From Coleofasciculus sp. B1-GNL1-01 (GTDB lineage: Bacteria > Cyanobacteriota > Cyanobacteriia > Cyanobacteriales > Coleofasciculaceae), in the NCBI GenBank assembly GCA_040220235.1, contig JAVJTO010000158.1: DNA of 10,683 nucleotides; one strand, written 5' to 3'. The position numbers and the translations under genes are program-made. The notes under the pieces were generated by a model, which ran no database searches, was not told the origin of the DNA, and saw only the letters and a program-made list of their open reading frames with translations. Of the stretch, positions 3,028 to 10,518 are shown piece after piece (the first letter of the stretch is position 1; every line of letters begins with the position of its first letter).

Positions 3028-3056
3028 CCCTCATCCATCGAGGGAGAAGGGGAACC
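3028..3056. repeat. Internally deleted copy of the CCCTC...GGGAGAAGGGGAACC repeat
   Basis: CCCTCATCCATCGAGGGAGAAGGGGAACC keeps both ends but lacks the CCCTAACCCCTTCTC middle. Confidence 0.7.
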
Positions 3057-3104
3057 CGAACCATCATAAAAGACGCGCTATTACACGTCTGGAACCTTCT
3101 GGGA

Positions 3105-4592
3105 TTAACCTGGCAAATCTGTACTCCCCATCAAATAGCGATCGCACTCACGGGCAGCACCTCGTCCTTCGTTGAATGCCCAAACCACCAAACTCTGACC
3201 CCGACGACAGTCTCCGGCGGCAAAGACACCGGGAATGCTGGTGGCATACTTCCCATAATCGGCTTTTATATTACTCCGAGCATTGCGTTCTAAACCGAGG
3301 GCATCTAGTAGGGGTTGTTCGGGACCTAGGAAACCCATGGCTAAGAGGACAAGTTGGGCGGGAATCACTTTTTCCGTACCTGGAACCGGACTGGGAATAA
3401 ATCGACCTTGCTCATTTTTCTGCCACTCGATTGTCACTGTATGCACCGCTTTCACATGTCCTTTCTCATCCCCCTCAAACTTCGTCGCGGTGGTGAGATA
3501 GGAACGGGGATCAGCGCCAAACTTCGCCGCCGCTTCTTCCTGCCCGTAATCCATGCGATAAATCTTGGGCCACTCGGGCCAGGGGTTGTCGGGGGCGCGT
3601 TCTAGGGGCGGCTGGGGCATGATTTCCAGTTGCGCCAGAGTCTTACACCCGTGACGCAGGGAAGTACCAACGCAGTCGGTTCCCGTATCACCGCCGCCGA
3701 TAATCACCACATCTTTGCCTTCAGCGGAGATAAAGTTGCCGTTTTTGCTGTTATCTAAAAGTGCCTTGGTATTAGCCGTCAGGAAATCCATGGCGAAGTG
3801 GATACCCTTTAACTCCCGTCCTTCGATGGGTAAATCCCGTGGTTTGGTCGCGCCCGTGCAGAGTACCACCGCGTCAAATTCTTTGAGTAGATTCTCGGTG
3901 GGGAAGTCTTTGCCCACCTCAGTGTTGCAGATAAACTTAACCCCTTCTTGTTCAAGCTGGTCAAGGCGACGCTGGACGACTTGCTTTTTGTCCAATTTCA
4001 TGTTAGGGATACCATACATGAGTAAGCCGCCGGGACGATCTTCCCGTTCAAATACGGTGATCCAATGACCGGCTTTATTGAGTTGGGCAGCCGCACAGAG
4101 TCCAGCCGGTCCAGACCCCACAATCGCGACTTTTTTCCCGGTGCGCTTGGTTGGGGGTTCAGGTTCGACCCAGCCTTCCTCCCAGCCTTTGTCAATAATC
4201 GAACATTCGATATTTTTGATGGTCACGGGGGGGTTATGGATACCCAGGACACAAGACCCCTCACAGGGCGCTGGACAGACGCGACCGGTGAATTCGGGGA
4301 AGTTGTTGGTTTTGTGCAGGCGATCGAGTGCCTCGCGCCATCGACCCCGATAAATCAGGTCGTTCCACTCTGGAATCAGGTTGTTGATTGGGCAACCGCT
4401 TGCCATACCCTTGATCATGGTTCCGGTATGGCAAAATGGCGTGCCGCAGTCCATACACCGCGCCGCCTGAGTTTGGAGTTTTTCCTCTGGCATGGGCAGA
4501 TGGAACTCATCCCAGTTGCCAATGCGACTGTCGGGTTGCAGTTCCGAGGGCAATTCGCGGAGATATTCGATAAAGCCAGTTGGTTTTCCCAT
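3105..4592 (-). CDS. gltD: Glutamate synthase (NADH-GOGAT) small subunit
   Basis: MGKPTGF start; Fe-S motifs [10 protein letters not shown]...GCP and [15 protein letters not shown] motif GSGPAG; NAD motif [11 protein letters not shown]-terminal [21 protein letters not shown] upstream. Confidence 0.97.
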
Positions 4593-5210: not shown

Positions 5211-6203
5211 ATGGCTTGGTCGGCGGGACAGCAGTTGCAACGTGGCAAATATACGATTGAGAAAGCGTTAGGATCAGGAAGGTTTGGGATAACCTATTTA
5301 GCCCGCGATCGCACGTCCCAACGCTGTGTGATTAAAACCCTGAGTGATACGTTACTCAATCAGCTTACTCCAGCAGAACTTAATCGGCTTCAGGATAAGT
5401 TGTGGCAAGAGGCGGTGAAGTTAGCGCAGTGCAAACACCCCCATATTGTTCGGGTTAAGGATTCGTTTAAAGAAGGTCAGCAAGTTTGTATTGTCATGGA
5501 GTATATTCAGGGACAAGATTTAACCCATGCCAACCGACTGACCGAAAAAGAAGCCTTACGCTATATTCGCCAGATTGGGTCAGCGCTGATGGTGGTGCAT
5601 GAGAATAACTTGGTGCATCGAGATGTTAGACCTGCGAATATTATGATGCGTCAGGGGAAACGGGAGGCGGTGTTAATTGATTTTGGGTTAGCGGTGGGAT
5701 TTGATCACCCGTTGACGACGATTAATCCGACAACTGCTGATGGGTTTACACCCCTGGAGTTATATCATGTGGATGCCGAACGCGGCGCTTATACCGATGT
5801 GTATTCCTTAGCCGCCACATTGTATCAATTACTAACCGGAGAAAAACCGCCCAGTGTCCGCGATCGCAGTTTGGCAAGGGCTAAATTGAAGCCACCGCAA
5901 GAGGAGAATCCCAAAATGAGCGATCGCACGAATCAGGCGATTCTCCGAGGGATGGCGTTAGCCCCGGAAGAACGCCCCCAAACGATGCCGGAATGGTTGG
6001 ATTTATTGGGGGTTGTGCCTCAATTTCCCCAACCCTGGCGCAATTGGGATTTGACGATGTGGTTAACGATTATTGGCACAATTGCTGGGATTTTGAGTAT
6101 GATTGCTGGGTTTTTAGCGCTCAAGCCACCCTCAACACCACCGCCGGAAACTACACCTGAGATTACGCCAACCTCACAACCGATTCAGCCAGAAACACAA
6201 TAG
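5211..6203 (+). CDS. Hanks-type Ser/Thr protein kinase with a C-terminal TM helix and Pro/Thr-rich tail
   Basis: LGSGRFGITY, VIK, HPHIV, MEYI, HRDVRPANI, LIDFG, TDVYSLA, PEERP; hydrophobic LTMWLTIIGTIAGILSMIAGFLAL. Confidence 0.93.
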   Translation: MAWSAGQQLQRGKYTIEKALGSGRFGITYLARDRTSQRCVIKTLSDTLLNQLTPAELNRLQDKLWQEAVKLAQCKHPHIVRVKDSFKEGQQVCIVMEYIQGQDLTHANRLTEKEALRYIRQIGSALMVVHENNLVHRDVRPANIMMRQGKREAVLIDFGLAVGFDHPLTTINPTTADGFTPLELYHVDAERGAYTDVYSLAATLYQLLTGEKPPSVRDRSLARAKLKPPQEENPKMSDRTNQAILRGMALAPEERPQTMPEWLDLLGVVPQFPQPWRNWDLTMWLTIIGTIAGILSMIAGFLALKPPSTPPPETTPEITPTSQPIQPETQ

Positions 6204-7569: not shown

Positions 7570-7744
7570 TGTTTCAATTGATTAAATTTAATATTCTATA
7601 GTGATCAGTTTTAATGATGCTCTCTGGTAGATAATTTATTTAAATTTAACTTTATCCAATACGTTGTCATTATATTATATGCAAAATTTTGACGATTTTG
7701 CTGTCAGCTAATTATATCATCACAGTATATCTAGATGGTAGCAT

Positions 7745-7890
7745 TTTTCACCCTCTTCCCCTAACCCCTTCTCCCATCAAGGGAGAAGGGGAACCGGAAG
7801 TATTAATAATAGAAAATGTAGCTAGCCATGTCTTATCTTACTCCCCTCTCCCCGGCGTGGGAGAGGGGTTGGGGGTGAGGGGGCGATAGC
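7745..7890. repeat. Complete double-hairpin (REPIN-like) element: two inverted CCCCT(T)CTCCC hairpins around an AT-rich spacer
   Basis: Left CCCTCTTCCCCTAACCCCTTCTCCC-ATCAA-GGGAGAAGGGG; right CCCCTCTCCC-CGGCGT-GGGAGAGGGGTTGGGGGTGAGGG; ends in GCGATAGC. 7745-7807 is identical to 10392-10454. Confidence 0.9.
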
Positions 7891-7978: not shown

Positions 7979-9313
7979 ATGGTCTGGCTTAAGGGACAGC
8001 AATTACACGGTCATCGCTACGTCATTGAACGCAAACTCGGTCAAGGTGGCTTTGGTATCACCTACCTGGTAAAAGACAGAAAAGGCAACTCCCTCGTCAT
8101 CAAAACCCTGACAGACGAGGTGATGACAAATCCAGACTTTATCGAGTTTCGCGATAAATACCAGCGAGATTTTGAGCGGGAAGCTACCCGATTAGCTGTA
8201 TGTAGACACCCCCATATTGTCCAGATTGAAAATGTCTTCCATGAACAATCACTCCCCTGTATCGCCATGGAATATATCCAGGGGGAAGACTTATGGCGAC
8301 GGGTGAGAAATCGCCATCCTTTATCAGAAGCTGAAGCATTAGGCTATATCCAACAGATTGGGGAAGCACTGACGGTGGTTCATGATAAGGGATTATTACA
8401 TCGAGATTTAAAACCGCAGAATATTATGGTGCGTTCTGGCGTATCAGAAGCGGTACTCATTGATTTTGGCATTGCTAGGGAGTTTATCCCTAATCTTACT
8501 CAAACCCATAGTGTTCATGTCACACCCGGTTTTGCGCCGATTGAGCAGTATGATGAACAGGCACATCGGGGAGAATATACGGATGTGTATGGGTTAGCGG
8601 CGACGCTGTATTGTTTACTAACGACAAAAGTACCACCGCCAGCATTTATGCGAGTGGTGCGGGATTCGTTACAACCACCACAGGCGCTGAATTCTAACGT
8701 GAGTGATAGGGTGAATCAAGGGATTTTGACGGGGATGGAACTGCAACCGGAAAATCGTCCTCAATCGGTGTCGGAATGGTTGCGGTTATTGATTCCCCAG
8801 AATTCGGGTGATGATTTGAGTTCAGAATGTGGTATCGATTACCGCCGACTGCGAGATTTATTAGCTGCTGGAGAGTGGAAAGAAGCAGATGAAGAAACGG
8901 CAGATAAAATGTTGGCTGTTATCGGCAAAGAAAAGTGGCGGAATGTTGAAAGAGAAGATATAGACAAATTTTCTTGTACTGACCTGCGAACGATTGACCG
9001 TCTCTGGGTAAAATACAGTAATGGACGCTTTGGTTTTTCTGTGCAAAAGCGAATTTGGCAAAGTGTAGGGGGTCAACCAGGCGTGTATGATGGAGACATC
9101 TACAACAAGTATGCGGACGTGTTGGGTTGGCGTGAACAGGGAAAAGAGAACCTTTCCTTTTGCCTAAATGCTCCCCAGGGGCATCTGCCAGGGGTGTGCC
9201 ATGTGTTAGTGTGGGATGGATTTGGGCCTTGGATATTAGTTGATGATTTGGAGGGATTGTGGATTGGGGTTATTTCTTCTCTCGCGTCGAGACTTGTAAA
9301 ATGTAACATATAA
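7979..9313 (+). CDS. Ser/Thr protein kinase with a C-terminal GUN4-like domain
   Basis: Kinase: LGQGGFGITY, HRDLKPQNI, LIDFG, TPGFAPIEQ, TDVYGLA. GUN4-like: DLSSECGIDYRRLRDLLAAGEWKEADEET, DLRTIDRLWVKYSNGRFGFSVQKRIW, APQGHLP. Confidence 0.93.
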   Translation: MVWLKGQQLHGHRYVIERKLGQGGFGITYLVKDRKGNSLVIKTLTDEVMTNPDFIEFRDKYQRDFEREATRLAVCRHPHIVQIENVFHEQSLPCIAMEYIQGEDLWRRVRNRHPLSEAEALGYIQQIGEALTVVHDKGLLHRDLKPQNIMVRSGVSEAVLIDFGIAREFIPNLTQTHSVHVTPGFAPIEQYDEQAHRGEYTDVYGLAATLYCLLTTKVPPPAFMRVVRDSLQPPQALNSNVSDRVNQGILTGMELQPENRPQSVSEWLRLLIPQNSGDDLSSECGIDYRRLRDLLAAGEWKEADEETADKMLAVIGKEKWRNVEREDIDKFSCTDLRTIDRLWVKYSNGRFGFSVQKRIWQSVGGQPGVYDGDIYNKYADVLGWREQGKENLSFCLNAPQGHLPGVCHVLVWDGFGPWILVDDLEGLWIGVISSLASRLVKCNI

Positions 9314-9373
9314 AGGTTTCAGCAGAATGTAACAATTTACAACAGAGGCAAAATCCACGAAGTCTTGCGAGTT

Positions 9374-9944
9374 CTACGTTGACCATACCTGGCACCGCCC
9401 CAACCCCAAAGAAGCTATCTGGGGATTAAAGCAATTAGCCAAGACAAATTTGTCAGCCACCTCATGTACTTCCCCCTCCGGCGCTTCCCACTGCGCCCAA
9501 GGTAGAAGCATTTGTCCTGGCGATGACTTTTTCGGTTTTCCCTTAACACTCAATCCCGCTAACAACCGACTTCCCCAATGATTTCGCTTTTCAGGTTTTG
9601 GTTGAGGGCGATATTTTTTGCAGAATCCGCGATACTTTGCCGCACATTCCTCTAATGTCTTCCCCAAAGATAAAAATGCTGGATGCCATTGCGTCAATCC
9701 ATCATCACCCAGTCTGTCATGAATACCATAATTACTGAAATCATAAAAATAGCCCTGCTGCATCCCAGCAGATTTAGGATTAGCGTTATTGGATTTTAAA
9801 CCTGTATTTATATTGTGATTTTTTGATGGCATACAGTAATACTTTCCGACATTCCAAGCGGGTGAGACGAAACTCACGATTATTACAGCGAACGGTGATA
9901 TGGTATGAGTATCCAGGTTTGAATTGACGAGGCTGGCGTGGCAT
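9374..9944 (-). pseudogene. Y1/HUH (IS200-like, RAYT-type) transposase pseudogene with an internal deletion and frameshift
   Basis: The N-terminal piece 9944..9786, not in the ORF track, reads MPRQPRQFKPGYSYHITVRCNNREFRLTRLECRKVLLYAIKKSQYKYRFKIQ*, a typical RAYT-type start. The C-terminal piece from 9784, in another frame, reads ANPKSAGM...YDFSNY. The HUH motif and catalytic Tyr expected between them are missing. Confidence 0.82.
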
Positions 9945-10032: not shown

Positions 10033-10358
10033 AACAATATCGTCAAGCCGTCCAGCAAGTCTTAACCAAATATGGCAGCTATAAACCGATAAACGTACAG
10101 GTGGACGTACAAACAATTTTTGATACTGAACGCGACCATTATCAAGTGGTGAGTGTGGGTTGGCACAACGACAGACGAATCCACAGTTGCTCAATGCATA
10201 TCGATATTAAGCCGGATGGTAAGGTATGGATACAGCTTAATAATACTGAGGCACATTTAGCCGATGAGTTGATGGAATTGGGCGTGAATCGGGAGGATAT
10301 AGTATTAGGATTTCATAGTCCTTATATGCGGCAGTTTACCGATTTTGCCGTTGGTTAA
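10020..10358 (+). CDS. xisI: XisI family protein (orphan copy)
   Basis: MDKLEQYRQAVQQVL, FDTERDHYQVVSVGW, HIDIKPDGKVWIQ, NTE...ELMELGVNREDIVLGFHSPYMRQFTDFAVG. Confidence 0.94.
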   Translation: MDKLEQYRQAVQQVLTKYGSYKPINVQVDVQTIFDTERDHYQVVSVGWHNDRRIHSCSMHIDIKPDGKVWIQLNNTEAHLADELMELGVNREDIVLGFHSPYMRQFTDFAVG

Positions 10359-10391
10359 TTGTGGAATTAAACTGTATCTATAGGGAAGCAA

Positions 10392-10518
10392 TTTTCACCC
10401 TCTTCCCCTAACCCCTTCTCCCATCAAGGGAGAAGGGGAACCGGAAGTATTAATGATCAAAAATGTAGTCGGCTATATCTTATCTTGCTCCCCTCTCCCG
10501 TGCCAAAAAAGCGATAGC
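10392..10518. repeat. Direct-repeat copy of the 7745-7890 element with the right hairpin truncated
   Basis: 63 nt identical to 7745-7807, a similar spacer up to CCCCTCTCCC (10499), then GTGCCAAAAAA and the same terminal GCGATAGC. Confidence 0.9.

Follow-up and report, generated by a model that had tools for sequence, protein, structure and literature searches.

The 3' end of a Ser/Thr kinase-GUN4 gene of Coleofasciculus sp. B1-GNL1-01 carries a short G/T-rich block between apparently constant sequences, which raises the question of whether this block is a site of targeted diversification and, if so, what rewrites it. Both a hypervariable cassette and, more speculatively, a role for the convergent HUH gene next to it had been proposed in a preliminary description of the window, i.e. 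the whole stretch of 10,683 nt analysed here. The features of the locus are listed in Table 1.

Table 1. Features of the cassette, its gene and the facing HUH gene in the window
Feature	Position	Strand	Details
Ser/Thr kinase-GUN4-like gene (target)	7979..9313	+	444 aa; Pkinase 14-221, GUN4 282-406
Constant 5' anchor, GHLP codons to second Pro base	9179..9189	+	Profile over 121 loci; variant joints
Variable block, random length, G/T-rich	9190..9274	+	Position profile, composition, alignments
Constant three-frame tail, 39 nt	9275..9313	+	Ends SSLASRLVKCNI (stop 9311-9313), FSRVETCKM (stop 9304-9306), LLSRRDL (stop 9297-9299)
Extended -10-like hexamer TGnTACATT, candidate promoter antisense into block	9300..9308	-	
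Spacer, length-fixed, conserved, periodic A/T tracts	9314..9384		
DNA motif CGGTGCCAGGTAT, candidate HUH site	9385..9397	-	111 nt from tail start
Y1/HUH pseudogene, convergent, RAYT, TnpA-REP subclass 2.1-like	9374..9944	-	

A recount agrees with the block as first described: positions 9191-9274 comprise 84 nt (35 G, 32 T, 13 A and 4 C), are in frame and code for GVCHVLVWDGFGPWILVDDLEGLWIGVI. The G+T content is spread over the three codon positions (23, 22 and 22 of 28, respectively), and at least 67 G+T are found in only 33 of 206,128 non-overlapping 84-nt segments of the same genome, both strands included. The start of the block was right as to composition and one base off as to the first base replaced, which is 9190, the third base of the Pro codon, where composition is already insert-like across 121 loci; the last sequence kept on the 5' side is the anchor. 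Nine GUN4-like matches occur in this genome. In the paralogue of contig C170, of which the kinase part is 94% identical, the 66 nt located 3' of the block are identical while the insert is unrelated and ends in a different frame. Three other GUN4-like paralogues, on contigs C15, C12 and C111, have G/T-rich or tail-like ends and look like older cassettes.

The window and C170 loci may be adjacent and separated by the assembly: positions 3105-4592 of the window correspond to what we take to be a glutamate synthase small-subunit-like gene, and the end of C170, beside the paralogue, presumably to a large-subunit-like gene. A second kinase paralogue devoid of GUN4 and a LuxR-TIR-AAA_35 gene (window 5211-6203 and 1062-2888) give the locus signalling or defence-like surroundings. 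A dispersed repeat family with a GC-rich palindrome is also present, with two copies of 178 nt each (7675-7852 and 10322-10499) that are 83% alike and located beside XisH/XisI-type genes, and with further copies at 815-871 and 3028-3060.

An exact 26-nt search with the 3' flank retrieved 110 loci across cyanobacteria; in 80 of them an initial, strict pattern detects G[HYQ][LF]P upstream. Relaxing the pattern and adding loci gave 137 distinct loci, of which 134 were left after removal of one with a double flank and two outside 15-160 nt, and these were merged into 121 independent inserts. These are 21 to 146 nt long and fall in all three frames (42, 43 and 36 of the 121 loci), at variance with the earlier view that inserts are kept in frame with a single tail. 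Their composition (G.40, T.30, A.18, C.11) is the same at every codon position and at four-fold sites in the 121 inserts; the four-fold sites just upstream have G.19, T.26, A.29 and C.26. Gly and Val are not used more often in frame than out of frame (156 distinct inserts). The skew is thus mutational, and selection on amino acids, including the preference for hydrophobic or Gly residues that might have explained it fully, is ruled out as its source by these codon-position, four-fold and off-frame data. The peptide itself is selected to stay open, since in-frame stops affect 8 of the 121 inserts versus 74+-5 after shuffling and 66 and 65 in the other two frames; by codon, 11 of 3,313 are stops in frame versus 309 of 6,478 off frame. 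Six of 160 inserts are below 50% G+T, and a minority are balanced or A/C-rich on the coding strand (L015, L039, L056, L078, L132 and L175; L040 and L203).

The contrast between block and flanks is illustrated by loci L024 and L142, which have 99.5% identity over the 197 nt upstream of the block and 100% over the 70 nt downstream. Their inserts are unrelated, with a common prefix of 0 nt and a common suffix of 2 nt. In 47 close pairs with distinct inserts, the longest common stretch is 6.70 versus 6.67 in shuffles. As a control, the canonical GUN4 segment was compared within one genus; all 17 of 17 genomes have it at the same length, with 98.8% identity. Judged from these alignments, the change appears close to all-or-none, with sharp borders. 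The 121 loci, the 47 pairs and L024/L142 confirm that the segment is a targeted hypervariable cassette between constant flanks, and the opposite outcome, a block as conserved as the rest of the gene, is contradicted by unrelated inserts between near-identical flanks. Two loci have a more complex organization: L143 encodes a tandem pair of GUN4 domains, each with its own variable block, the first of which reads through an altered tail, and in L243 a second tract plus tail is joined behind an older one.

The part of the protein that is rewritten can be placed on the GUN4 structure. The core fold up to GHLP is the same as in canonical GUN4, and the block starts at residue 209 of Synechocystis GUN4, where the alignment to 1y6i ends. 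It therefore takes the place of the terminal part of the alpha6/alpha7 loop, including Arg214 and Arg217, two residues tied to porphyrin binding (PMC1084334), and the conserved Arg214/Arg217 loop that follows GHLP is indeed absent from the window gene. Since this porphyrin-binding segment is the one replaced, a variable ligand-contact loop is a fair inference. Canonical GUN4, the Mg-chelatase cofactor, has a fixed porphyrin-contact loop where the cassette proteins have random sequence; in this genome the canonical copy is a separate gene, on contig C140.

On the 3' side, the tail supplies a usable helix-like ending and a stop in whichever frame it is entered, which accounts for the occurrence of inserts in all three frames. 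Stops lie within 15 codons in all three frames in 44 of 56 tail loci versus 8.4 in shuffles, these 56 loci having been found through the HUH gene and hence not picked by the flank pattern. The short palindromes said to bound the block are present at their described positions (9169-9183 and 9280-9292), and it is their role as conserved bounding signals that does not hold: the 5' one retains 6/6 pairs in merely 11 of 160 loci and is considered incidental, and the 3' one, which lies within the tail, is partly kept (5/5 pairs in 17 of 33 HUH-first loci). No conserved RNA or ssDNA fold was detected in the spacer, the sole hairpin being one that the search pattern had fixed.

Beyond the spacer, conservation stops abruptly at a short motif that marks the edge of the module. 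Among 158 loci examined, 88 have this motif and 73 of these have it at 111 nt from the tail. Read on the HUH strand as GGTGCCAGGTA, it occurs in 50 of 110 HUH loci, in different frames of the HUH gene, and it is common to GUN4, cyanobactin and Nif11/prochlorosin loci; as a 12-mer it has two copies in the Coleofasciculus genome. In L121, L144 and L223 the HUH gene runs directly into a GUN4 domain, either at its start or in its middle; the join of L144 lies at the motif, and these joins suggest that the motif is a recombination point.

The facing gene of the window, for which an active part had been suggested as a speculation, is a pseudogene and catalytically dead: residues ca. 52-123 are deleted and with them both His and the Tyr. 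Besides it, the genome has only two distant Y1 matches (27%). Because the HUH gene is broken and no other close copy exists in the genome, the window copy of the cassette is probably frozen. Elsewhere the family is under strong purifying selection (median dN/dS 0.059, 75 pairs), and NHVH, WE and YxxxNP (YIHANP) are invariant in 30 of 30 aligned homologues. These are among the traits of subclass 2.1 given in Table 1 of PMC6006769. The proteins score 69-72 bits with the NCBIfam RAYT model NF047646 (cut-off 80) and 22-25 bits with the IS200-type model NF033573 (cut-off 55). A Pfam search of the protein returned Y1_Tnp only, with no HTH tail detected, the C-terminal half being modelled at low confidence; the structural model (pLDDT 66.6) has PDB 4ER8 as its best Foldseek match (E 1.3e-5), and a sequence search against solved structures gave no match. 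An invariant GQxxL(P)W in the HUH tail (alignment residues 214-220) resembles, by sequence, what we take to be the consensus of sliding-clamp-binding motifs. No conservation was found upstream of 92 HUH starts, i.e. no left end, and the gene does not show the multi-copy spread expected of a selfish element. With no two conserved ends and an NF033573 score below cut-off, an IS200/IS605 insertion sequence was rejected.

The same HUH clade also faces other kinds of genes. In L214, L218, L219 and L222 it lies inside cyanobactin clusters and faces variable-core precursors, and in L166, L178, L179, L224 and L228 it faces Nif11-type precursors, in both cases with the motif or a close variant. L166, L178 and L179 form a separate HUH subclade, outside picocyanobacteria, and the Nif11-like precursors that they face have unrelated cores. 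A tree of 93 proteins, built by a quick method, nests the cyanobactin- and Nif11-facing enzymes among the GUN4-facing ones and sets the picocyanobacterial enzymes apart as a distant sister group. The picocyanobacterial genes of L225, L226 and L227 face a 335-359-aa protein that ends in NRDVRV(H/Q)D followed by a variable, often Cys-bearing tail and that is possibly a further target class. In a published cyanobactin cluster, a transposase lies between sphE and sphF, without comment in the available text (PMC6162287). G/T skew is not a general mark of all targets, being missing from 25 Nif11/procA-type cores (A.24, C.21, G.31, T.24).

A candidate antisense promoter was noted in both GUN4 and cyanobactin loci. 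At the former, TAnnnT occurs at a fixed place on the HUH strand in 48 of 56 HUH-first loci and its TG extension in 36, a conservation that is confounded because the hexamer overlaps the three-frame coding of the tail; a scan of the window for two-hexamer promoters found none. The cyanobactin case is cleaner because the DNA there is non-coding: TTGAnn-17-TAnnnT is matched (8-10 of 12) in six of nine precursors, including five of the six with the motif, and the matches point into the core and end 6-8 nt outside the stop. Near-consensus sigma70-like promoters, antisense into cyanobactin precursor cores, were observed in L284-L287. In T. erythraeum, the start-site table has 17 GUN4-like rows, three of them antisense (PMC4143802); one antisense start has 17,070 reads versus 2,186 for the gene's own start, from which it is 1,992 nt downstream, this location being relative to the gene and not to the cassette.

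Whole-block replacement at random length, C/A-rich on the HUH strand and between fixed borders, with selection for an open frame and linkage to the HUH gene, is what these data show. As to its origin, we favour, at somewhat better than even, an RT-free diversity generator that combines HUH nicking with untemplated synthesis, perhaps aided by an antisense promoter. In such a scheme, the HUH protein would recognise the motif region and nick the minus strand just past the tail, this strand being exposed as single strand by antisense transcription or by replication. The free 3'-OH would be extended without template by a host enzyme, one candidate being PNPase, which polymerises dNDPs onto ssDNA in this manner (PMC5379764), and the extended end would be rejoined at the anchor through HUH strand transfer or microhomology. 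Slippage duplications would arise now and then. Once selection has removed the variants with premature stops, sensors of the kinase, TIR or caspase type would be left with a freshly written loop for ligand contact. A broader version, in which a single domesticated HUH clade guided by the motif and the antisense promoter acts throughout cyanobacteria as a template-free rewriter of GUN4 loops and of cyanobactin and prochlorosin cores, and would be the bacterial equivalent of TdT junctional diversity, is put forward more tentatively and is doubtful as a whole.

The direction of synthesis is suggested by flank copies that lack the gene. GUN4 is missing in front of five of the 145 copies for which sufficient upstream DNA is available; three of these (L031, L071 and L310) have a G/T-rich tract of ca. 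40 nt plus the tail fused to unrelated DNA, and the other two have no such tract. That the tract stays attached to the tail even in unrelated DNA suggests that new DNA grows from the tail side, as a C/A-rich extension of the minus strand.

The part played by the HUH enzyme can be weighed from its distribution. Among 110 loci fetched with an intact HUH query, 84 have at least 500 nt downstream and 61 of these face a GUN4 domain, a share biased to GUN4 partners because the loci are the best matches to a GUN4-facing query. Together with the 111-nt spacing in 73 of 88 loci, this bears out the tight linkage of a convergent HUH family to the cassette; co-occurrence with the HUH family or with an RT had been put forward as a test, and only the first is found, no polymerase, RT or other accessory gene recurring beside HUH in the 110 loci. 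In the flank-first set, HUH sequence is kept downstream, on the opposite strand, in 38 of 110 loci, mostly as 3' remnants, 30 of the 110 having only about 300 nt of flank. In the loci that have kin with an upstream identity of 92% or more, the insert was unique in all 11 that carry an intact HUH in cis and in 10 of the 21 that do not, the other 11 of these 21 sharing theirs, within five lineages; in this comparison loci are not independent and HUH action in trans is left out of the count. Stop-bearing inserts were found in 5 of 36 intact-HUH loci versus 2 of 91 others (p 0.019). Mean G+T is the same whatever the HUH status (0.72 intact, 0.74 none). That a locus becomes frozen once the border TC is lost found no support, TC being kept in 20 of 36 intact-HUH loci versus 48 of 91 others (p 0.84).

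These figures bear on the alternative that survives best, namely that the host repairs breaks, with nucleotides added without template, at a hot spot of antisense transcription. HUH would then only spread or duplicate the GUN4 end module from its motif and would not be needed for diversification. Of 401 sampled genomes, 87 have the tail pattern and only 24 a near-full HUH (E<1e-100; hand count, with at most six candidates scored per genome), and 69 of the 87 lack one; this agrees with a host process, as do the ten unique inserts beside no HUH in cis, the coincidence of the motif with the edge of shared sequence, the joins of HUH with GUN4 or another gene in L121, L144 and L223, and a HUH fold that offers no polymerase. 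It is judged unlikely because the five shared-insert lineages are all without intact HUH in cis, stop-bearing and hence fresh inserts are enriched beside intact HUH, the 111-nt spacing is fixed, the left end and multi-copy spread of a selfish element are missing, and the same HUH clade has three unrelated types of target next to it, all of them variable.

HUH-assisted rewriting also has to be set against a slow or rare turnover of inserts, which was apparent from contigs of four lake-type metagenome runs compared with L136, at contig level and not for single molecules. Two of the four runs contain alternative inserts joined at the predicted borders (L136 5911-5962 and 5913-5960), and the variant contigs have C/A-rich loose ends on the HUH strand; these variants may be other strains or paralogues. 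The insert of L136 itself, which has an intact HUH next to it, predominates in three of four runs, and insert turnover must therefore be slow or rare. One allele dominant across lakes, and kin that share certain alleles which drift by ordinary changes, would suit a second alternative, in which insert birth is rare and recombination or transformation swaps alleles of an old, large pool between the flanks. This is very unlikely: near-identical inserts are confined to close kin (134-160 loci), and the origin of the inserts, the strand skew, the random frames and the stop-bearing alleles are left unexplained.

More doubtful still is an explanation without any dedicated enzyme, in which a loop of low complexity is prone to slippage and the three-frame tail tolerates the outcome. 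Internal repeats of at least 10 nt are found in 10 of 121 inserts versus 2.6 expected, and copies of upstream sequence in 7 versus 2.8. Against this, the other 111 are free of such internal repeats, close pairs have no more in common than expected by chance, the change is all-or-none with sharp borders, and slippage would not give one composition across genera. Neither snap-back nor downstream templating of inserts showed a clear excess.

A retroelement of the DGR type, with a template, was sought in the whole assembly. No template repeat was detected by an ungapped scan of the genome that allowed mismatches at any one base, for all four bases and on both strands, and a short-word blast of the insert against the genome returned only itself and the paralogue flank. 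The longest genome matches of the two inserts of this genome are 16 and 14 nt, versus 13-19 in shuffles. Eight RVT_1 matches in the 172-contig assembly correspond to RTs of group II introns, five of them full and one split, and to one unclassified RT, and no DGR-type RT was found in the genome or at the locus. The unclassified RT (667 aa, YCDD, L007 850-2850) has weak matches to group II and Drt2 models. The earlier opinion that this is not a DGR and the search it called for, for a non-coding template copy, have thus led to the same answer, and a DGR was rejected for want of a template and of a DGR-type RT and because lengths vary from 21 to 146 nt in random frames. DGRs have a misincorporation bias that the scarcity of C in the inserts resembles, a point in favour of a hidden DGR-like element acting in trans from an adenine-rich template. 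Even so, and although a C-terminal site on cyanobacterial kinase sensors fits known DGR targets (PMC7517822), such an element is the least probable explanation of all, given the failure of the one-base mismatch rule to reveal a template, the nature of the RVT_1 matches, the random lengths and the lack of any RT recurring near the 110 HUH loci.

If the HUH enzyme does drive replacement, bacteria would have a further route of targeted diversification, distinct from DGRs, inversions and cassette swapping, by which new sequence of free length is written. How cyanobactin and prochlorosin cores become hypervariable between constant flanks, a long-standing question, would become testable. In contrast to the prochlorosin work, the GUN4 loci provide clear-cut borders, a signature in base composition, a motif at a fixed place and an easy read-out. 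The GUN4-like domains of kinase, TIR and caspase-type proteins would then probably act as variable receptors, and the pair would be a small two-component tool with which to build loop libraries in vivo.

The literature searched, which includes few subscription papers, yielded no account of a GUN4 loop that is hypervariable, and the GUN4 cassette is not described in the available parts of PMC10783134, PMC4603692, PMC7159879, PMC8195603, PMC7517822 and PMC5581495. The closest precedent is TnpA-REP facing procA in marine picocyanobacteria (Laurenceau et al., bioRxiv 10.1101/2020.03.09.984088), for which diversifying recombination was proposed and later hedged; the main text calls the link unique to picocyanobacteria and claims no strong evidence for causation. 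The same enzyme subgroup, convergent genes, a conserved distance and intergenic DNA, many C-terminal fragments and variation focused on a single segment are found there, and the loci described here display this type of pairing, being convergent, at fixed distance, with a conserved spacer and truncated 3' fragments. The picocyanobacterial HUH proteins have 45-50% identity with the GUN4-facing enzyme, and the motif is found with both. The partner differs, a lanthipeptide precursor there and GUN4 in the window, and the main text of that study names no GUN4 or cyanobactin target, base skew or three-frame tail. The cassette is therefore real and widespread, and a variant of a pairing so far only hypothesised; there is a fair chance that it is a new kind of mechanism.

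With RAYT/TnpA-REP proteins of class 2, subclass 2.1, the enzyme shares NHVH, WE and YxxxNP, a length of about 255 aa, low copy number without abundant REPs, and the fold match to 4ER8 (PMC6006769, PMC5581495), and differs in being tied to a coding cassette rather than to extragenic repeats and in scoring below the RAYT cut-off. Cyanobacterial DGRs likewise produce local 3'-end hypervariation of multidomain kinase-type sensors between constant flanks (PMC7517822), and in the available text of that study GUN4 is mentioned solely among the N-terminal domains that CLec targets carry. In contrast, the cassette has neither RT nor template repeat, its lengths are random and its target is GUN4 instead of CLec. 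It differs from a REPtron, in which a RAYT is accompanied by abundant GTAG-type REP repeats, in that its motif, the only element counted, is not high-copy. A parallel in logic is N-addition by TdT during V(D)J recombination, where a site-specific cut, apparently untemplated DNA of random length and selection for an open frame create a variable binding loop; this is an analogy only, the enzymes being unrelated and the cassette having a tail that itself accepts all three frames.
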